From Blastocatellia bacterium (GTDB taxonomy: Bacteria; Acidobacteriota; Blastocatellia; RBC074), in contig JANMAL010000663.1 in NCBI GenBank assembly GCA_031359775.1, positions 1 through 32,132 of the forward strand: DNA of 32,132 bases, in the 5' to 3' direction. How positions within the stretch are numbered: the first letter of the stretch is position 1; every line of letters begins with the position of its first letter. The notes under the pieces are model-generated. The model searched no databases and was not told where the DNA came from. It saw nothing but the letters and a program-made list of their open reading frames with translations. The position numbers were made by a program, and so were the translations under genes. Of the stretch, positions 5,907 to 26,505 are shown piece after piece.

Positions 5907-6503
5907 TCAATCAAAATTTAGTTCTGCAAATAACCCTGCGACAGGCATCGCAAAGCCGGGTATGACATCTTCGCCGTCCAACAAATCGCTGACTTGCAAG
6001 AAGTGGCTGGGGCGATCTGCACGGTAAACCAACACCGTTTGGTCAAATGGGCTAATCAGCCACACCAACCGGCAGCCGCTGGCAAAATATTGGTTGAGCT
6101 TTTTCAGAATCTCCCACCAAATGTCCGTTGGAGAAATTACTTCGACTGCTAAGTCTGGCGCGCCCTCGAACGGTTCAGTAGAAAGTCGTTGTGCTGGCAG
6201 CCGATCCTTCGCAACAAACGAAACATCCGGTTTGCGGGTGTTGCCTTTACTCATTCGATACACTGCACTTGATTCCAATACAATTCCGAGTTTTTGTGAT
6301 CTTACAAAAACTCCTAGTTCGCTTGTTAAGAGGGCAGCGATGTAGGAATTCTCCATAGTTGCGGGGCCTTTCTCTATTGGAACTCCATCTACCAACTCGT
6401 ACTGCTTGTCGGTCTCGCTCTCCAACCGTTCCAACTCTGCCTCCGTCCACACTTTCGGCAGTGTCACAACTGAATCAGCAAAAATTGTATTTTGTGCCTG
6501 CAT
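5907..6503 (-). CDS. Uma2-family (DUF820) putative restriction-endonuclease-fold protein
   Basis: 198-aa ORF. It has the typical Uma2 layout: YELVDG..IEK, then RKPDVSFV, then APDLAVEVISPTD (PD-(D/E)xK-like), then the C-terminal Y(F)ASG(C)RLVWLISP...VLVYR. Confidence 0.75.
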   Translation of the reverse strand: MQAQNTIFADSVVTLPKVWTEAELERLESETDKQYELVDGVPIEKGPATMENSYIAALLTSELGVFVRSQKLGIVLESSAVYRMSKGNTRKPDVSFVAKDRLPAQRLSTEPFEGAPDLAVEVISPTDIWWEILKKLNQYFASGCRLVWLISPFDQTVLVYRADRPSHFLQVSDLLDGEDVIPGFAMPVAGLFAELNFD

Positions 6504-18246: not shown

Positions 18247-18365
18247 AGCCCGCGATACGAATCATCAACTTACTTACGTCCACCAACTAATTCATCATCG
18301 TCTGCTACGCCCCATAATAATCTGGCATTTTTTTGCCTACAGTTTCGGTAGTTCGGGATTTTCTT

Positions 18366-19823
18366 ATGCCTGAAGATAGCAATGCTCCTGTCTTAACCAG
18401 CAATTATCAGTTAAGCCAATTCTTTGACGAGATGTTTGCCGCGCCGGGCGAACCGCGCTTGCATTATCAAACGTTACACGAACGGTTTTGTGCGCTCAGT
18501 GTCAGTGATATGAACGAAAAGACGCGCGCCGCTGATATTTCGTTCCTCTATCAAGGCATCACGTTTACGGTCTACAGCCAGGATGAAGGCATTGAGCGTA
18601 TCTTTCCCTTTGACCTGATTCCGCGCATCATTCCCCGGCGCGAGTGGGATTTACTCGAACGCGGTCTGACGCAGCGGGTGCTGGCGCTGAATCAATTTTT
18701 GCATGATGTCTACCACGATCAGCGCATCATCAAGGACAAACGAATCCCGCCGGAACTCGTGTTTGGCGCCAGCAATTTTCGCCGCGAGATGATCGGTATA
18801 ACCGCGCCGCGCCAAATCTACGCGCATATTATCGGCACGGATCTGATTCGGGATCATGAGGGCAATTATTATGTGCTGGAGGATAACCTGCGCTCGCCCT
18901 CCGGCGTCAGCTACATGCTGGAAAATCGGCAGGCGATGAAGCGCTCGTTTCCCCGCTTATTTGAGCAATATGGCGTTGCGCCGATAGACCATTACCCGCA
19001 GGAATTGTTGGCGATGTTGCGTTCCGTTGCACCGCGCGAAGTGCCGGAGCCGACGGTCGTGCTGCTGACGCCCGGCGTGTATAACTCGGCCTACTTCGAG
19101 CATTCATTTCTGGCGCGGCAAATGGGCATCGAAATTGTCGAAGGCCGCGATCTGGTTTGTCACGACAATCGCGTTTACACCCGCACCACGCATGGCTTGC
19201 AAAGCGTTGACGTGATTTATCGTCGGATAGACGATGACTTTCTGGATCCGCTGGCGTTTAAGCAGAAAAGCCTGCTTGGTGTGCCGGGCTTACTCAACGC
19301 CTACCGCGCCGGGAACATCACGCTGGCCAACGCGATTGGCACTGGCGTGGCCGATGACAAGGCGGTGTATGCGTACGTGCCGGAAATGATTCGTTACTAT
19401 TTGGGCGAAGAGCCAATCCTGAATAACGTGCCGACTTATCTGGCAATCAACGACACCGACCGCGATTACATTTTGGCGAATTTAGACAAGCTGGTGGTGA
19501 AGGCGGTCAATGAAAGCGGTGGTTATGGCATGTTAATTGGCATGCACGCCAGCCAGGCGGAGCGCGCTGCATTCGCCGAAAAAATCAAAGCCAATCCGCG
19601 CAACTTCATTGCGCAACCGACCATTTCGCTAAGCCGTCATCCGACCTATATCGAAGGCGAATTGCGCGGCTGTCACGTGGATTTGCGGCCTTACATTTTG
19701 TGCGGCGAAACGATTAAGCTGGTGCCGGGCGGATTAACGCGCGTAGCTTTGCGCGCCGGGTCGCTGGTGGTGAATTCATCGCAAGGTGGCGGCAGTAAGG
19801 ATACTTGGGTTTTGGTAGATTGA
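18366..19823 (+). CDS. Circularly permuted type-2 ATP-grasp protein (COG2308-type amidoligase)
   Basis: About 485 aa from ATG 18366 (the ORF-track TTG 18333 is less likely). The length and sequence character match my recollection of the family that precedes alpha-E and transglutaminase genes ([104 protein letters not shown]). Confidence 0.85.
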
Positions 19824-19826
19824 AGT

Positions 19827-20180
19827 ATGACGGGAATTAATTACAACGGCAGAACTTTCCGGTCTTTTTCCAACACTGCCGAAGGCGAGGTGGATGCGCG
19901 TACAACGTTTCGCTATCGCCAAATGGGCGATATTGTGTGGGCGGAATATGTGGGCGGACGCATTCGGTTGGGGCAATTGCTCGGATTGGTGTTGCCGGAT
20001 GGAAAATTGGAATTCCGCTATCAGCATGTTAATGAGACTGGTGAATTGATGACGGGGCTTTGTCTTTCGACCCCGGAAGTATTGCCGGATGGACGTTTGC
20101 GGCTGCATGAAGCGTGGCAATGGACGGGTGGAGAGCGCGTCAGTGGCGAGTCTATCGTAGAGGAAATTCTGATTCTGTAG
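19827..20180 (+). CDS. Small soluble beta-rich conserved hypothetical protein (family often auto-annotated 'N-acetylglutamate synthase'; function unknown)
   Basis: 117-aa ORF whose ATG lies 3 nt after the ATP-grasp stop. The pattern NYNGRTFR..SN...GEV...T.F.Y.Q.GD.VWAEY.GG.I..G.L.G......G.L.FRY.HVNE.GELMTG.C.S.PE.LPDGR.RLHE.WQW resembles a widespread ~110-aa family I recall. This is not verified. Confidence 0.6.
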   Translation: MTGINYNGRTFRSFSNTAEGEVDARTTFRYRQMGDIVWAEYVGGRIRLGQLLGLVLPDGKLEFRYQHVNETGELMTGLCLSTPEVLPDGRLRLHEAWQWTGGERVSGESIVEEILIL

Positions 20181-20236
20181 CTCCTTCACCGACGCTGTGG
20201 GTTTGATTTTAGAGACGATCTTTTTGAGCAAACGAC

Positions 20237-20548
20237 ATGGGCGTAATCGAACTATTATTTATTCTCGTTATCATTCCGTACCGCGTTTGGCGGCTGGCCA
20301 AAGAACGCGGCGAGAGCGCGCTGAAATGGAGTCTGGCCGCCATTGGGGCGTGGATTGGGGCGGAGCTTCTCATTGGAACTCTCGTCGGTATTTTGTGGGT
20401 TCTGCTGGCTCGGTTAGGCTTTACCCCCAGAGGGAACGCTGTCAATGTTTTTTACGTGCTTTTTTATTTGTTGTTGATCGCTGCCGCAGCAACGAGCGCA
20501 ACCCTGGTGATACGGCAACTACGCAAAAAGCCGATTACACAATCCTGA
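20237..20548 (+). CDS. Small integral membrane protein (~3 TM), hypothetical
   Basis: 103-aa ORF with an ATG start. It has three hydrophobic stretches ([13 protein letters not shown]; [25 protein letters not shown]; [22 protein letters not shown]) and a basic C-terminus. It is co-directional with and tightly packed inside the operon. Confidence 0.55.
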
Positions 20549-20576
20549 AGAAAAGGGACAAACGCAAAATTATCTT

Positions 20577-21563
20577 ATGCTGTCACGAGTTGCTGATTCA
20601 CTGTTTTGGATGTCACGTTATATTGAGCGCGCCGAAGATTTGACGCGCTTATTGGCGGTTAATTTTCACTCCCTGCTGGATGCCGGAAAGGTTGATTCAG
20701 AGCAGGGTTGGCAACCGCTGATTGCCATGACCTATGATGAAAAGCGCTTTGACAAGCATTACCCCACTTGTACCGCGCTCAACGTCGTGGATTTTATGCT
20801 TTGGAATCAAGCCAATCCGAACGCCGTCATCTGGTGCATCACGATGGCGCGCGAAAATGCCCGCAGCGTGCGCGAGCAGATCAGCAAAGAGATGTGGGAA
20901 TACTTGAACCGTCTCTACTTCCGTGTGAAAGAAGCCGACCGCGCAGCCGTGTCGCGTTCTTTGCAGGAGTTTTTCTATAACCTGCGCGATGGCTCGCAGG
21001 CGTTTCAGGGCATCACCAATGAAACGATGACACACGGCGATGCCTACCAATTCATTCAAATCGGCAAGCATCTGGAACGCGCCGAAAAAACCACGCGCAT
21101 CCTTGATCTCAAATATGAAAACGTCACGCAATTGCCGGAAGGCTCGCCCGACGAGGCGTTACAATTGATGGCGATGCTGAAATCGTGCAGCGCGTTTGAG
21201 CCGTTTCGCAAAGAATACACGTCGCAATTAAGCGCCGAAGCGATTGTCGAGTATCTGCTGCTGAATCGTGAATTTCCGCGCGCCGTCGCGTTTGGTTTAC
21301 ATCGTTGTTTACAGGCTGTGAATGCGATTTCCGGCACGAATGATGGCGGCAAGATGAATCACCCCCAACGCAGCCTGGGACGCCTGGTATCAGAGTTGGA
21401 GTATCTGGATATTCAAGACATTTTGGGCGTCCGCCTGCGCACGTATCTGGCGCAACTTTTACTACGCCTTAATCAAGCTGGCGAAGACATCACGCGGACT
21501 TACTTCAATACGCAGGTAATTTTGCCTGAATTACATCCCCAACAGGCACAGCAGCAGCAGTAG
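20577..21563 (+). CDS. Alpha-E domain protein (COG2307-type)
   Basis: 328-aa ORF. The N-terminus [21 protein letters not shown] and the internal [18 protein letters not shown] are the hallmark alpha-E helices. It ends with a tandem TAG TAG. Confidence 0.85.
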
Positions 21564-21645
21564 TAGGTGTTGGGTGTTAGGTGTTGGGGAAAATCCAATA
21601 CCTGACACCCGATCCTAACACCTGGCACCTGATACCTAACACCTA
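21564..21645 (+). repeat. Repeat-built stem-loop (GGTGTTRGG units versus complementary CCTRACACC units) between the alpha-E and transglutaminase genes
   Basis: TAGGTGTTGGGTGTTAGGTGTTGGG (21564-21588) pairs over all 25 positions (19 Watson-Crick plus 6 G-U in + strand RNA) with CCTGGCACCTGATACCTAACACCTA (21621-21645). The 32-nt loop holds further complementary units (CCTGACACCC 21601-21610, CCTAACA 21614-21620). Confidence 0.6.
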
Positions 21646-21648
21646 TTT

Positions 21649-22446
21649 ATGAGACTTCGCATCGAACACGTCACCACTTTCAGCTACGATTTACCCATTA
21701 GTGAAGCCTATACCGAAATGCGGTTGGCCCCGATGGACATTGGCGGACAACGCCGTACGGCGTTTCGCTTACGCACCGAACCGAACGGGGAAGTGACGCG
21801 CTATCAGGATCGCTACCAAAACGAAGTGCATTACTTCGATGTACTCCAATCGCATCAACAAGTGCAGGTCACAGTCTTAAGCGAAGTCCTCACAGCGGAA
21901 AAATTTGTGGATGAACAAATGACTTTGTCGCCGCTGGATCAGTTCGATTATTTGACTTTGACCCCCTATGCCTCGGGGCACGAACTGATTCACGATCTGG
22001 CCGAAGCGAATGTCATTGTAGGCAACAAAATGGCGACCGCCTATGCTTTGATGACCGCTGTACATGAAGCGATTCGCTACGAGCGCGGCGCGACCAGCGT
22101 CAAAACCACTGCCGATGAAGCGTTGCAATTGGGCAAAGGCGTTTGTCAGGATTATGCCCACGTGATGTTGGCGGCCTGTCGCATCAGCGGCTTACCGGCG
22201 CGTTATGTAAGTGGTTATCTGTACAGCCCGAATGCGCCGGAAATGGCTTCGCACGCCTGGGTGGATGTGTTCGTAACGGAATATGGTTGGCGTGCGCTTG
22301 ACCCAACGCATAACTGCTTACAAGATGAAAAGTATGTGCGGGTGGCGACGGGGCGGGATTATGCTGATGTGTCGCCGACGCGGGGAATTTATAAAGGCAA
22401 TGCGAAGGAAAAAATGGAAGTGGCTGTGCAGGTCATTGCCATTTGA
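21649..22446 (+). CDS. Transglutaminase-like cysteine peptidase family protein (Bact_transglu_N + transglutaminase core)
   Basis: 265-aa ORF. Its N-terminus [28 protein letters not shown] is typical of Bact_transglu_N. A catalytic-triad-like Cys ([10 protein letters not shown]), His (ASHAWVDVF) and Asp (RALDPTH) are present. Confidence 0.85.
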
Positions 22447-22447
22447 A

Positions 22448-23194
22448 TCAGGTCACTGCGCCGCCATCTACCGTAACGACCTCACCATTCATATAGCTGT
22501 TGCGGTCTGACACCATAAATGCGGCGAATTCCGCCAATTCTTCCGGGTGTCCACGCCGTCCTTTGGCGCACCAAAGTTCGTGAAGCTGCAAAAACTTTTC
22601 GGGCAGCGCATCCGATAAATCCGTATCGAAAATCCCCGCCGCAATCGCGTTGACGGTTATTCCAAAGGCAGACGCCTCGCGTGAAAGGCATTTCGTGAAG
22701 CCAATAACAGCAGCTTTAGAGGTCGCGTAATGCACGGAAGTTGGCAGAGAACGGATAGCGCCAATACTGCTCATATTCAGAATCATCCCGGCGCGTTGGC
22801 GAATCATGTATTTGTACACGGGCTTTGTGACATTAAAGATGCCATTGACGTTCGTATCAATCACCTCGTCCCAGGCTTTTTCCGTTGTGGTGGCAAACAT
22901 ATCGCCGCGATTGATGGCCGCGTTGTTCACAAGAATATCAATGCGTCCGAATTCTTCGTGAATTTGCTTCACCATTTTGATGATGCCAGGGCGATCTGTA
23001 ACAGAAGTTTTGAATGAAAAACCCTGTCGTCCGAAGGAGCGAATCTTGTCTACGGTGGCTGCGGCACGCTCATCGCTGACATTGTAATTAAAGGCGATGT
23101 CGGCACCTTCCCGCGCAAAAACTTCGCACAGTGCTCGCCCAATGCCGCGCGAGCCGCCGGTGATGATTGCTTTTTTTCCTTCAAGTAAACCCAT
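22448..23194 (-). CDS. SDR-family oxidoreductase, FabG-like (3-oxoacyl reductase-type)
   Basis: Contains TGGSRGIG (TGxxxGIG), LVNNAAI (NNAG) and YATSKAA (YxxxK). ATG 23194 (MGLLEGKKAIITGG) is preferred over the ORF-track TTG 23212. Confidence 0.85.
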   Translation of the reverse strand: MGLLEGKKAIITGGSRGIGRALCEVFAREGADIAFNYNVSDERAAATVDKIRSFGRQGFSFKTSVTDRPGIIKMVKQIHEEFGRIDILVNNAAINRGDMFATTTEKAWDEVIDTNVNGIFNVTKPVYKYMIRQRAGMILNMSSIGAIRSLPTSVHYATSKAAVIGFTKCLSREASAFGITVNAIAAGIFDTDLSDALPEKFLQLHELWCAKGRRGHPEELAEFAAFMVSDRNSYMNGEVVTVDGGAVT

Positions 23195-23232
23195 AGTTAT
23201 TTTGTAGCTCAAGTGCGACCAAATATCACATG

Positions 23233-24438
23233 TTACGGTAAATGAATTGCGGGGGCTGGAGTTGCGGGGCTGTCGGTGCTTTGATTGTCCATCTTGCTCA
23301 TAATTTCGTGGACAATGCGGCGCGTTGCATCAGGAATCGCAATTTTGGCAGAAGCCAGGCGCAGTGCCGCATGCTCCGCCGGGCTGGCAATCAACCGCCG
23401 CACAATCGGTACTACATCAGAGGCCCGTTCCAGCAAAAGACCCGCCTTATTGCGTAGCAGCATATTTGCGGTTTGCAATTCCTGCGGCATGGGAGGCGTC
23501 GTGACGTCCGCAATAATTGGTAAGCGTGAAGCCAATGCTTCAAACGTTGTCAGTCCGCCAAGTTTGGAGATCATCACATCCGCCGCGCGCATTAACTTTT
23601 CCATTGCGTCTGTGTAACCGATGATTTTAATTGGAAAGGGCGAGCGCTTAGCCATCCGGGCCACATCGTTTTGCAGTTCTACATTACGCCCGGCCAGAAA
23701 TACCGCCTGCGTATTTTTAAGCTTGTCTCCCTGGTCAATCATTTGCTCGAAGATGTGGGGAATGTTCCCGCCGCCAATCCAGCCTGCGTTGACAAAAACC
23801 GTGAATTTCTCAGGATCAAGCCCCAGTTCCAGGCGGGCAGCAGCGCGCTCTTCTTCGTTTTCGTACTGGAATTTAGGATGAATGGGAATGCCGCAGATTT
23901 TGATCTTTTCAGGCTGGATGCCGTAATCAATCAATTGCTGTTGCGCCTCTTGCGTTGCTACCAAATATAAACTCACGTCCTCGCACGCCCAGCCGCGCCA
24001 AAAGCCGTAACAAGGATCTGTTACCACCGTAACCAGAGGAATCGTCTCCAGGAGGCCGAGTTCTTTCATCACCCGCGCAAATAAATGCTGTGTCATCGGG
24101 TGAACAGAGATCACAACTTGCGGACAGAAACGCTCAAACAATTGCCGCAGATAATTCACGCCCAAGCGATAAATTAGATTCGATTCGTTCGGTTTGAAGC
24201 GTTCAATCGCCGCATAATAATACTTCATCAATGGCTGATGATTGCGCAGCAGATAGTTGTAAAACTCGGCCAGTTTCTGCGCCAGGAAATGCGATTCTTC
24301 AATCGCCCGCACGACATTCACCAGACAGCCAGGCGCCGAGAAGCGCTTGAGCCCATCGGCAATCGCTGCCGCTGCACTGGTATGTCCTCCACCGGTTGCT
24401 GAAGTGATAATGAGGAACTTTTTAGCGCGCTCGTCCAT
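23233..24438 (-). CDS. GT-B glycosyltransferase of the MGDG-synthase/UgtP (GT28-like) family, putative diacylglycerol glycosyltransferase
   Basis: 401-aa ORF. FLIITSATGGGHTSAAAAIADGL, PQVVISVHP, LVTVVTDPC..W, VSLYLVAT and IKICGIPIHPKF follow the block order of B. subtilis UgtP / MGDG synthases as I recall them. The C-terminal half is Glyco_tran_28_C-like (ADVMISKLGGLTTFEALA). Confidence 0.8.
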   Translation of the reverse strand: MDERAKKFLIITSATGGGHTSAAAAIADGLKRFSAPGCLVNVVRAIEESHFLAQKLAEFYNYLLRNHQPLMKYYYAAIERFKPNESNLIYRLGVNYLRQLFERFCPQVVISVHPMTQHLFARVMKELGLLETIPLVTVVTDPCYGFWRGWACEDVSLYLVATQEAQQQLIDYGIQPEKIKICGIPIHPKFQYENEEERAAARLELGLDPEKFTVFVNAGWIGGGNIPHIFEQMIDQGDKLKNTQAVFLAGRNVELQNDVARMAKRSPFPIKIIGYTDAMEKLMRAADVMISKLGGLTTFEALASRLPIIADVTTPPMPQELQTANMLLRNKAGLLLERASDVVPIVRRLIASPAEHAALRLASAKIAIPDATRRIVHEIMSKMDNQSTDSPATPAPAIHLP

Positions 24439-24463
24439 TAGGAATTGAATGTTGAGGCTGGAG

Positions 24464-25615
24464 TTAATTGACGCTTGCCTCGACCATCGGCCCGCTCAGT
24501 TCGCCCTTATGCGATTTCTTCAATTGATATTCCAGCTTTTTGATTTGGATCAAATGCTTGGGATTGAAGGCGAGCGAGGGGTAGTAGCAATTCGATTCGT
24601 GTGTGCAATGACAACCGCTGCGGGCATGCTGGCGACGCGCTTCCATGGCGGGAGAGTTCCAAAGCTTCCAAAAGTTCCAATCGTAATCACGCAGATTGGC
24701 GACCGGATCAAGGTTTTCGCAACTCGACACCGTGCCTTCATCATAAATCACGCCGCCCGTATTACCTGCGTGACACTGCAACTGTGCTTTCTTTTCGGTC
24801 TCTGTTTTGGCGATGACTTCGTGCATATGAATGTCAATCGCAGCTTTGAAATAGCCGTTTTTGCCCGAATAGTGATTTTTGATAAGAGCTTTGCGCGAGT
24901 CATCGTCAATCAAGGCCGAAAGCTGGCGATAGCGGCTGATGTCAATGTCCAATTCCTTCGCCGCCGCAGCGGGCGGGCGAATGTAATTGACATTGATTTT
25001 GTCAGGTTTTAGCTCATAGCGCAGGAAGTCATACCATTCGAAAATGCGATCCTGATTCGAATTCATAAAGCAAGTACAGGTTTGCACATCCAGTTGCGGA
25101 TGTTGCTTTTTGATTTCCTGTAATTGGCGTGCCGTGTCAATCGCCTTATCCCAACTACCCACTTTGCCGCGAATTTTTTCGTGGTCTTCTTTCAGGCCAT
25201 CAATGCCGAGCGCAACGGTCACATTCAGTTTCGGGCATTCGTCCAGAATACGCGAAACATCCGGCATGATGCGTTGCTGAATGCCACCGTTTGACATCAG
25301 ATACACCGATTCAAGCTGATTGTTTTCGTAAAAAGCGCGCACGATTTCGGGCAGGTCTTTGCGCGTAAATGGTTCACCGCCTGCGATGATGAGCACTGGC
25401 AATTTGCCGCCCAATGTTTCGCTGATGCGTTGCAGATTTTCCGTCGTAAGCTGGTTTTTCTTGCGCGACTTATCGTTCAACTCCTCAGTAAAGAAGCAAT
25501 GAACGCAGCGCATATCGCAAACCGAAGTGACGAGAATGTTGAGCACAACAGGTGAAGTCACCCCACCCGTCAACACGCGAGCATATTTTTTAAGTAGTTC
25601 AAATCCGTAATCCAT
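24464..25615 (-). CDS. Radical SAM enzyme with C-terminal SPASM/twitch-like cysteine cluster
   Basis: Contains CDMRCVHC (CxxxCxxC), IIAGGEPF (the GGE motif), and the C-terminal CHAGNTGGVIYDEGTVSSC followed by CHCTHESNC. ATG 25615 (MDYGF..) has AGGA 7 nt upstream and is preferred over the ORF-track TTG 25645. Confidence 0.85.
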   Translation of the reverse strand: MDYGFELLKKYARVLTGGVTSPVVLNILVTSVCDMRCVHCFFTEELNDKSRKKNQLTTENLQRISETLGGKLPVLIIAGGEPFTRKDLPEIVRAFYENNQLESVYLMSNGGIQQRIMPDVSRILDECPKLNVTVALGIDGLKEDHEKIRGKVGSWDKAIDTARQLQEIKKQHPQLDVQTCTCFMNSNQDRIFEWYDFLRYELKPDKINVNYIRPPAAAAKELDIDISRYRQLSALIDDDSRKALIKNHYSGKNGYFKAAIDIHMHEVIAKTETEKKAQLQCHAGNTGGVIYDEGTVSSCENLDPVANLRDYDWNFWKLWNSPAMEARRQHARSGCHCTHESNCYYPSLAFNPKHLIQIKKLEYQLKKSHKGELSGPMVEASVN

Positions 25616-25899
25616 CAAATTTCCTAACAGGGACAAACCGCTCAAATTATGTAAAGTCCAAGCGACTGCTTATTAAGCTGTTTTTGCGTGCCAATGTCAA
25701 ACGCTCATAAATACTTGGTTTGCTTTGCTGGAAAAAAGTGTTAACCTCCCTCATCGGTTTGACCGAGATAATTGAAACAGGCAAGACAAAGCGGGAGTGA
25801 ACAAAGGGTTCCTAAACACTTTCGTGCTGCCGCAGGGACATTAGGGGAATGTCTACGCTGCCTTACCAAGCGCTATTTCGATAAGGAGACCTGCTCAGC

Positions 25900-26505
25900 A
25901 TGGCCAAATGCCCAGCTTGCCGCAGTGAGAGGGTGTATAAAGGGTATCGTCCCGCGCCGCTTCTTCTTCGGCTCTTACGAATTCACGATTTTTTATGTGA
26001 AAACTGCAACCTGCAATTTCGTGCATTTTCTCTTGCCTCGCCTCGATCACGTACCCGCAAGGGTAAGAAAAGAGAGTCGCAACAAAATTCGCGCATCATT
26101 GAACCTGATACGCCTATCAAAATTACGGAACCTGCACCCGTTTCCCAACCTCGCACTAATCCTCAAAGTAAACCATTGCTGGCGCAAACTGCCAGCGCAG
26201 CGGCTTCAGGTATGAGTCAACCACTGCCGCCATCAAAGGCCAGGTTGGCCCAAAACGAGCCGGTAAAACAAACAATCAAAGGGCAATGGCAAATGCCGGC
26301 GGAGGCCTTGGAGGAACTTGAGACAAGTCGCCGTTCCCATCGCTCTCATCAGATTTGCCCCCATTGTGGTGCTACCGATACGGAACGTCGTCGCCGTAAG
26401 CTATGGGAAAAAGTTACTTTTGCTTTTACGACAATTCGCGCCTACAAATGTCGAATTTGCGGCTCAGATTTTTACGCGCGCCGTAAACAAAAAACCGAAG
26501 CCTGA
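25900..26505 (+). CDS. Hypothetical protein with two zinc-ribbon modules joined by a ~110-aa disordered basic/Pro-rich linker
   Basis: 201-aa ORF, with AAGGAG 11 nt upstream of the ATG. The N-terminal module is CPAC-x25-CENC..F and the C-terminal module is CPHC-x27-CRIC..F. Both are followed by Arg/Lys-rich tails. Confidence 0.6.
   Translation: MAKCPACRSERVYKGYRPAPLLLRLLRIHDFLCENCNLQFRAFSLASPRSRTRKGKKRESQQNSRIIEPDTPIKITEPAPVSQPRTNPQSKPLLAQTASAAASGMSQPLPPSKARLAQNEPVKQTIKGQWQMPAEALEELETSRRSHRSHQICPHCGATDTERRRRKLWEKVTFAFTTIRAYKCRICGSDFYARRKQKTEA

Follow-up and report, generated by a model that had tools for sequence, protein, structure and literature searches.

What would a radical enzyme, a glycosyltransferase and a reductase make together when they are encoded in one short cassette? 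The question is raised by contig JANMAL010000663.1 of the Blastocatellia bacterium assembly GCA_031359775.1, a stretch of 32,132 nucleotides (hereafter the window). According to the list of its open reading frames (ORFs) with translations, its minus strand carries, all in one direction, genes for a radical S-adenosylmethionine (rSAM) enzyme, a glycosyltransferase (GT) of the GT-B fold and a short-chain dehydrogenase/reductase (SDR). With a probability of about 0.5, we read the cassette as the source of a hexosyl-diacylglycerol with a remodelled sugar, which would be deoxygenated, epimerised or changed in some other way via a radical or keto intermediate. The starting points of this reading are directly observed: which genes are present, that they are conserved together, that their catalytic motifs are intact and that the rSAM enzyme is associated with GTs throughout its family.

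The three window proteins were compared by tblastn with all fetched loci, and loci encoding an rSAM protein at least 60% identical to that of the window were called type A. Among 70 type-A loci, the 45 that hold at least 3.2 kb of downstream sequence were taken as informative. The GT gene is present in 39 of these, and the rSAM-GT-SDR set is complete and in the same order in 37 of them; two type-A loci have the GT and lack the SDR. The preliminary description of this stretch, made from its letters alone, had treated the genes as one module, and the neighbourhood survey bears this out: the trio is one unit in most genomes. It occurs in four or more genomic settings, the flanks being wholly different among the window and L001, L002 and L003, and L007. 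In L095, the rSAM gene overlaps the GT gene, and in L007 the two are separated by 7 nt. Where the spacer between rSAM and GT genes is long, it holds genes for a peptidase, for Uma2 nucleases or for toxin-antitoxin pairs, and no fourth conserved cassette gene was found in the inspected spacers. Such inserts are seen in L017, L053, L061, L063, L092, L054, L058 and L075, with the cassette order unbroken; by eye, the toxin-antitoxin pairs look like HicAB, BrnTA and RelE/ParE types, other ORFs resemble Uma2-family nucleases, and the spacer of L058 encodes a trypsin-like peptidase.

All relatives come from metagenome-assembled genomes (MAGs) or metagenomes. A total of 1878 rSAM homologues were retrieved, the best 120 of which have identities of 77% or more and belong to Blastocatellia or Acidobacteria MAGs. 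Among the matches listed for GTDB species representatives, type-A orthologues (64–99% identical) occur almost only in Blastocatellia/Pyrinomonadaceae-type MAGs, and below type A the identity falls to 34% or less; in the protein library, the nearest relatives outside type A are 35–41% identical. The window itself had been thought to look acidobacterial, in agreement with the 99% identity of its rSAM protein to that of JANNND010000258.1 (L015), labelled 'MAG: Blastocatellia bacterium'. A few type-A loci bear odd organism labels ('Heliomicrobium' for L074, which has the full trio at 82% identity, 'Verrucomicrobiia' for L066, and 'Solibacteraceae' for L033 and L064), which probably stem from mistakes in binning or labelling and not from lateral transfer. 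Blastocatellia also have a stand-alone, 41%-identical rSAM paralogue (cluster P0127; loci L004–L006), located beside rimP-nusA-infB with neither GT nor SDR gene nearby.

How deep is the association? The nearest outgroup of type A, here called type B, comprises clusters P0131 and P0133 with their relatives P0412–P0424. Type-B rSAM proteins (403–491 aa, 51–58% identical to P0133) are only 34–37% identical to the window rSAM. In two type-B lineages (L096/L097 and L098/L099), the rSAM gene is followed by genes for a GT of the MGDG_synth family and an SDR that are 49–50% and 67% identical to the window proteins, respectively, thus matching them as closely as the type-A GT and SDR of Pyrinomonadaceae do. 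In L012, a type-B rSAM gene lies ahead of a gene for a 52%-identical GT, and in L095 it overlaps the gene for a 35%-identical MGDG_synth GT. Therefore, the rSAM-GT pair forms the deep core of the cassette, with the SDR as a frequent third member. Past unrelated small ORFs, the type-B cassettes of L096/L097 (14223–14888) and L098/L099 (15283–16031) are followed by IscA/HesB-like and NifU-like iron-sulfur assembly genes, which are 62–73% identical between the two lineages and were not seen beside type-A cassettes.

Beyond these two types, a search of 1.84 billion cluster representatives (clusters at 50% identity) returned 574 clusters at E<=1e-30, most of them full-length and 26–40% identical, with members in bacteria, the candidate phyla radiation (CPR) and DPANN archaea. 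Fusions of a GT2 domain to the rSAM protein are found in 10 of the 150 best cluster representatives, the GT2 part being N-terminal in nine of the ten and the order reversed in P0132; P0514 is a further fusion. In five out of twelve distant GTDB loci (L078, L082, L091, L093 and L094), the rSAM gene is preceded without interruption by a GT2 gene, and L091 and L094 also carry genes for a nucleotidyltransferase, a GHMP kinase, a nucleoside diphosphate (NDP)-sugar epimerase/dehydratase and a sugar C-methyltransferase. The GT2 partners resemble MftF (62–119 bits) and EpsD, staying under every cut-off. In a rough neighbour-joining tree, drawn without support values, the basal radiation is GT2-linked and the derived clade consists of type A and type B; P0127, P0129 and two of the fusions (P0132 and P0514) fall in with type A, and a Bryobacterales set without GT linkage in the inspected loci falls in with type B. 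The family is thus tied to two unrelated GT folds (GT-A in GT2 and GT-B in MGDG_synth), which makes a shared sugar a likelier target of the radical enzyme than an acyl chain.

Some distant relatives lie in clusters with several rSAM genes (L013/L014, L078 and L082). The DPANN archaeal ones combine several rSAM and GT2 genes; L013/L014 encode an rSAM/SPASM protein, a GT2-rSAM fusion, an rSAM protein and another rSAM/SPASM protein, plus a separate GT2. In L082 (Omnitrophota), a B12-rSAM gene is followed by GT2 and rSAM genes. These multi-rSAM clusters may represent a broader radical glycan-tailoring system. In the Bryobacterales loci L077 and L086, the 30–33%-identical rSAM is preceded by a 3-keto-disaccharide hydrolase (PF06439) and not by a GT, so that here, too, the neighbour is related to carbohydrates.

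The third protein of the cassette is an SDR (adh_short, 191 bits, 2e-56) with Staphylococcus aureus FabG (3osu, 4.6e-55) as its best PDB match, and is 37% identical to E. coli FabG. Its translation contains TGGSRGIG, NNAA and YATSK; the TGxxxGIG and YxxxK motifs reported earlier are thus present, while the reported NNAG is in fact NNAA. The N-S-Y-K tetrad and Arg15, the NADP-type arginine of TGxxRGIG, are invariant in 45 cassette SDRs. The position of Arg172 of E. coli FabG is occupied by phenylalanine in 45 of 45 cassette SDRs, and Arg129 is kept; in E. coli FabG, both arginines are residues that dock acyl carrier protein (ACP). The protein scores 224.3 bits with the FabG equivalog TIGR01830 (cut-off 297.75). 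A housekeeping FabG was rejected on this score and the Arg172Phe replacement, and the SDR is predicted to be an active, classical NADPH-dependent ketoreductase that does not use acyl-ACP.

These data bear on the most durable of the other explanations, which we still consider improbable, namely that the genes are mere operon neighbours that share no pathway, e.g., an MGDG/DGDG (mono-/digalactosyldiacylglycerol) synthase, a FabG paralogue and a housekeeping rSAM enzyme. Eight type-A loci would agree with it, six of them with neither GT nor SDR and two without SDR, as would the M48 peptidase gene that separates the GT and SDR genes in L001 and the strong likeness of the SDR to FabG. However, unrelated neighbours would hardly keep their co-linearity down to 34–37% rSAM identity and across many insertions, and the relatives show rSAM-GT fusions as well as the overlap or 7-nt gap described above for L095 and L007. 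The FabG paralogue, too, would have to be one that scores under the FabG cut-off and has lost Arg172 in all 45 copies.

On what would the cassette act? The GT had been assigned to the GT-B glycosyltransferases of the MGDG synthase/UgtP family from the order of its sequence blocks, and profile and PDB sequence searches agree: it belongs to the PF06925 MGDG_synth family (83.5 bits, cut-off 25; 2.4e-23) and has a PF04101 (GT28) C-terminal domain (30.7 bits, cut-off 22). It matches plant MGD1 (4wyi) over residues 3–382 at 1e-31 and a UgtP-type processive glucosyltransferase (9wde) at 1e-26. Its TGGGH aligns with the SDTGGGH of MGD1, in which the GGGH histidine is reported to act as catalytic base; G-x-x-T-x-x-E-A and Q-E, which bind the nucleotide sugar in the C-terminal part, are conserved as well. 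Characterised members of the MGDG_synth family glycosylate diacylglycerol (DAG) or glycosyl-DAG. The window GT is accordingly predicted to be a uridine diphosphate (UDP)-hexose:1,2-diacylglycerol glycosyltransferase of the CAZy GT28 type, presumably sharing with MGD1 and UgtP the transfer of a hexose from UDP-hexose to DAG. It differs from them in that it is no orthologue of a characterised enzyme, with 164.2 bits against a cut-off of 500 for the UgtP equivalog (diglucosyl-DAG synthase, NF010135). No MGDG_synth-family member in an operon with an rSAM gene was found in the literature searched, and to our knowledge no such pairing has been described.

The first protein is a member of the radical SAM superfamily, with a PF04055 core (59.8 bits, cut-off 29.5), the CX3CX2C motif (CDMRCVHC, with C33/C37/C40) and a GGE motif (GGEP at 79–82), and both motifs are invariant in a set of 79 relatives of 26–89% identity. 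Five auxiliary cysteines follow towards the C-terminus, C281, C299, C335, C337 and C343, arranged in a first motif CHAGNTGG...C (C281-X12-G294-X4-C299) and a second motif CHCTHESNC (CXCX5C); all three cysteine motifs had been pointed out before and are read in the translation. C281, C299 and C337 are invariant across the 79 sequences and C335 is 99% conserved, whereas the fifth auxiliary cysteine is found at position 341 in 73% of the family and at position 343 in the window protein, type B and the nearest relatives of these two. We took SPASM to be defined by CX9-15GX4C followed by CX2CX5CX3C...C (seven cysteines) and twitch by a single cluster of four cysteines. The cassette enzyme has CXCX5C in place of the CX2CX5CX3C of SPASM/twitch proteins, with four invariant auxiliary cysteines and the variable fifth, a pattern that appears to fit a twitch-like arrangement, with a single auxiliary cluster that is fully ligated, better than the two-cluster SPASM arrangement. 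The further invariant or near-invariant residues, R85, D87, D139, H145, R149, N187, R213 and E300, are all polar, and these fit a polar substrate.

Does this protein join any group of known function? It reaches the cut-off of no curated NCBIfam family, the best being TIGR04053 with 65 bits (cut-off 395), and its C-terminal 215 residues have zero NCBIfam matches. The single sequence matches PDB entries over the rSAM core alone (GDGT-MAS, viperins and MoaA), the best being GDGT-MAS (7tol, 1e-6, residues 31–153). By contrast, the family profile aligns full-length, though only to CteB, anSME and SuiB. An AlphaFold2 model built from the 79-sequence alignment (pLDDT 94.6) was compared with the PDB by Foldseek and lies in the SPASM/twitch neighbourhood, with no close neighbour: SkfB, SuiB, CteB, BlsE, anSME, DesII, MoaA and PqqE are matched with TM scores of 0.5–0.6 at 12–18% identity. 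The full-length profile alignment to CteB and anSME and the Foldseek matches are in line with the earlier label 'SPASM/twitch-like'; Pfam SPASM misses the protein itself and matches its relatives. With BtrN, anSME, DesII and BlsE the enzyme appears to share the partial TIM-barrel core and a C-terminal cysteine-rich auxiliary domain with C-X12-G-X4-C, but the similarity is distant (12–18% identity, TM 0.4–0.6). HMM and Foldseek comparisons of the kind proposed in the preliminary description thus place it in no clade of known function.

Several specific assignments were rejected on the same grounds. NirJ/Ahb and MoaA scores are far under the NCBIfam cut-offs (53–63 bits for NirJ-type models), and HpnH (52 bits, TIGR03470 cut-off 225), WgkB (56 bits, cut-off 650), MftC (44 bits, cut-off 265), viperin/pVip (45.6 bits, NF038283 cut-off 180) and Tes (41.5 bits over residues 33–176 only, NF045702 cut-off 450) likewise fail. 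HpnJ was rejected on the lack of a B12-binding domain in Pfam. The SkfB model is absent from the 25 best NCBIfam families, the lowest of which scores 35 bits. A defence role for the cassette has no support, PADLOC matching only the rSAM core (pVip, 47.8 bits) and neither the GT nor the SDR.

The structural neighbours evoke a maturase of a ribosomally synthesised and post-translationally modified peptide (RiPP) or redox cofactor, in which an rSAM/SPASM enzyme, a GT and an SDR would be combined by a mycofactocin-like logic and the GT would act on a small molecule instead of DAG. SkfB, SuiB and CteB, the top structure and profile matches, are RiPP maturases, MftF is the best match of the GT2 partners of the distant relatives, and the archaeal relatives sit in the multi-rSAM clusters described above. 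Such a system would need a precursor peptide; however, neither the interval from the upstream box described below to the rSAM gene nor any other part of the cassette was found to hold a conserved small ORF, and two candidate precursors upstream of the rSAM gene (ORFs of 45 and 42 aa) were rejected as not conserved. The protein has no RiPP recognition element (RRE) domain, only about 22 residues preceding the first core strand of the model. Equivalents of MftA, B, D and E are lacking, the MftC score of 44 is set against 265, and the GT belongs to the DAG-specific MGDG_synth family, so that we regard such a maturase as very unlikely.

Equally remote, in our judgement, is chemistry on the lipid tail or backbone, i.e., a Mss/Tes-like coupling that yields iso-diabolic acid, or an ester-to-ether conversion with the SDR as reductase. 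There is a gap for it to fill: the study that defined Mss homologues by E<=1e-50 and at least 30% identity to the Mss of T. maritima or T. ethanolicus reports none in the Acidobacteria genomes that it examined, a Tes homologue is present in only 3 of 14 iso-diabolic-acid producers, and an alternative pathway has been postulated (PMC13159169). Subdivision 4 is rich in ether-bound iso-diabolic acid (PMC13274423), and among the matches listed the cassette is specific to a lineage of this subdivision. The cassette also includes a DAG-type GT, and GDGT-MAS is the best PDB sequence match of the rSAM protein. Like Tes (GDGT-MAS) and Mss, which act on membrane lipids, this protein is predicted to be an rSAM enzyme with an auxiliary cluster, and its core is weakly similar to that of Tes. 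The similarity is nevertheless confined to the core (residues 31–153), the Tes model gives 41.5 bits against 450, and the Foldseek alignment to GDGT-MAS covers 240 columns with a query-normalised TM score of 0.45. Gene context and taxonomic spread differ as well: among the matches listed, orthologues are lacking in the iso-diabolic-acid-producing subdivisions 1, 3 and 6, and Bryobacterales have just the 30–33%-identical relatives in other contexts. Moreover, the family is ancestrally GT2-linked and present in DPANN and CPR, the conserved pocket residues are polar or charged, and the rSAM enzyme has no B12 domain. The Tes/Mss-type C-C coupling suggested in the preliminary description consequently loses ground to these scores, to the restriction to Blastocatellia-type MAGs among the matches listed and to the GT2 fusions of DPANN and CPR. 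Were it true, the route by which Acidobacteria arrive at membrane-spanning or ether lipids would no longer be missing. Its most definite version, that the cassette is the postulated route to the hallmark lipids of the phylum, with the rSAM enzyme coupling or etherifying alkyl chains on glycosyl-diacylglycerol towards the iso-diabolic acid or ether lipids of subdivision 4 and the SDR as reductase, is the least probable proposal considered here, although it would open the genetics of branched glycerol dialkyl glycerol tetraether (brGDGT)-type lipids of Acidobacteria to direct test. The cassette, a tempting yet weak candidate, thus largely drops out of the search for acidobacterial brGDGT genes.

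We therefore return to the glycolipid reading, in which the three genes would form one operon building a modified glycosyl-diacylglycerol membrane lipid. The GT would move a hexose from a UDP-sugar to diacylglycerol, as its family membership implies. The rSAM enzyme would cleave SAM reductively, and the resulting 5'-deoxyadenosyl radical would take a hydrogen from the sugar. A keto-sugar could then arise in two ways: the auxiliary [4Fe-4S] cluster may accept an electron in a dehydrogenation of the BtrN/anSME type, or it may aid the loss of a neighbouring hydroxyl in a dehydration of the AprD4/DesII type. Finally, the NADPH-dependent SDR would reduce the ketone, giving a deoxy- or epimerised hexose head group. 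The DAG acceptor, the sugar as radical target and the keto-intermediate logic are what we infer from the evidence above. Alternatively, the rSAM step may be complete alone, either as a radical epimerisation or as a ring contraction of the Cds/HpnJ kind that yields a cyclitol, and the SDR would then catalyse an additional step. Sugar or head-group tailoring had been one of two earlier suggestions, and it is strengthened by the rSAM-GT links and the competent SDR without Arg172, evidence that comes from gene context.

Would the sugar be remodelled before or after its transfer? Action on the lipid-linked sugar is slightly preferred as a tentative option, since the SDR is a classical and not an extended one and there are lipid precedents. 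Action on the UDP-sugar ahead of transfer, which we hold to be rather doubtful, is favoured by the family-wide polar residues, the diversity of the GT partners and the NDP-sugar genes that neighbour some of them.

A number of observations weigh against the glycolipid reading. The GT2-fused relatives have no SDR, nor does L095, and the rSAM step may thus need no reductase; in 6 of the 45 informative type-A loci, the rSAM gene stands without GT and SDR genes nearby. NDP-sugar ketoreductases are usually extended SDRs, not classical ones. The DAG acceptor would follow from family membership of a GT that does not reach the UgtP cut-off. The structure and profile searches are generic, with peptide maturases matching no worse than BlsE and DesII, which act on sugars, and the rSAM enzyme has no characterised homologue. 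Finally, the GTDB scan gave no cultured Blastocatellia genome among the matches listed, all being MAGs, and hence no known lipid can be matched to the cassette.

Parts of the proposed pathway have precedents. AprD4 and AprD3 are an rSAM dehydratase and an NADPH reductase that carry out the C3'-deoxygenation of apramycin (PMC5461906). The cassette would resemble this pair functionally, in that an rSAM enzyme is combined with an NADPH reductase for the resulting ketone, and differs from it in that AprD4/AprD3 act on an aminoglycoside pseudodisaccharide, with no lipid and no DAG GT partner. In cyanobacteria, MgdA and MgdE make a glycosyl-DAG first and then epimerise the sugar on the lipid by a Rossmann-fold oxidoreductase. 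This would be a precedent for a head-group conversion after transfer, although MgdA is a GT2, MgdE does not resemble FabG and an rSAM enzyme is not known to take part. Cds (Saci_1489) converts a lipid-linked hexose to calditol. Both Cds and HpnJ perform an rSAM-dependent ring contraction of a GT-attached lipid hexose to a cyclitol (PMC13459092). Cds and the HpnI/HpnK/HpnJ system may thus be compared with the proposed remodelling of a membrane-lipid hexose by an rSAM enzyme, but their lipids are tetraethers and hopanoids rather than the DAG proposed here, HpnJ is a B12-binding rSAM enzyme, unlike that of the cassette, and Cds acts on archaeal GDGT, with no known need for an SDR.

What is already known, then, is that a radical enzyme and a reductase can tailor a sugar and that an rSAM enzyme can remodel a lipid head group; new, to judge by the literature searched, are the enzyme family, the combination with a DAG glycosyltransferase and the predicted product. 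The trio had not been recognised as a characterised pathway in the preliminary description, and this holds after the searches, in which no NCBIfam family was reached and no description of the trio or of a GT-linked rSAM family was found in the literature searched. Searches for Blastocatellia glycolipids and Chloracidobacterium lipids yielded nothing relevant. The rSAM enzymes covered by a review from 2026 on lipid modification are confined to Tes, Mss, Gms, Grs, Gmm, Cds, HpnH/J/P/R, Jaw5 and the ladderane enzymes. If the glycolipid reading is correct, Blastocatellia, which are abundant in soil, have an undescribed bacterial route to a glycolipid in which the sugar is remodelled by radical chemistry. 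The cassette is the most tractable entry to a large GT-linked rSAM family (574 clusters, many GT2 fusions), and solving one member would assign chemistry family-wide and add a new sugar or glycolipid tailoring reaction to radical enzymology.

The gene calls that underlie this analysis are collected in the table below together with neighbouring features. The rSAM ORF is listed as 24464–25645, and its true start was placed at an internal ATG because the homologues are 382–383 aa long and begin with MDYGFELL; for the SDR, the ATG was preferred to a TTG because its homologues are 248 aa long. With the revised starts, the genes are separated by 25 nt (rSAM-GT) and 38 nt (GT-SDR), as described before, and these gaps, together with a conserved upstream box, support an operon structure.

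Coordinates of the cassette genes, the upstream box and neighbouring features in the window
Feature	Coordinates	Strand	Length	Remarks
rSAM gene	24464-25615	-	383 aa	ATG at 25615
GT gene	23233-24438	-	401 aa	
SDR gene	22448-23194	-	248 aa	ATG at 23194; alternative TTG start at 23212 (254 aa)
Promoter-like box	25669..25702	-		conserved upstream of the rSAM gene; read 25702-25669; TTGACA 25700-25695, TTAATA 25676-25671
ATP-grasp/Alpha-E/transglutaminase-like block	18333-22446			adjoins the trio
Divergent gene	25900-26505	+	201 aa	paired CxxC zinc-ribbon motifs at both ends
Uma2 gene	5907-6503			

The box, GTTTGAC(A/T)TT-N-GCTTAATA, lies about 55 nt ahead of the rSAM ATG. No other block is conserved when the 400-nt regions preceding this gene are aligned for seven loci whose rSAM proteins are 78–99% identical and which include unrelated upstream flanks. 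Its elements TTGACA and TTAATA are separated by an 18-nt spacer. A generic sigma-70 scan did not pick out the box, the promoter and terminator scan being no better than shuffled expectation, and its conservation and position suggest a putative operon promoter. At the other end, a single nucleotide lies between the SDR stop codon (lowest coordinate 22448, minus strand) and that of the convergent transglutaminase-like gene, which ends at 22446, and neither strand thus has space for a terminator.

Elsewhere, the window has genes for the catabolism of sugar acids and amino sugars, for a TonB-type receptor, for the ATP-grasp/Alpha-E/transglutaminase block and for TilS and FtsH, and none of these is lipid-related. 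The adjoining block, which comprises a circularly permuted ATP-grasp protein, a small avidin-like protein, an Alpha-E protein and a transglutaminase-like protein, is also found beside the trio in L001; it is considered a neighbour outside the cassette because it is missing beside the trio in L002, L003 and L007. In L001, the region upstream of the rSAM gene holds unannotated genes of 210 and 52 aa. The window has a Uma2 gene of its own (see the table), and the product of the divergent gene beyond the box has a low-complexity middle part between its two pairs of zinc-ribbon motifs.

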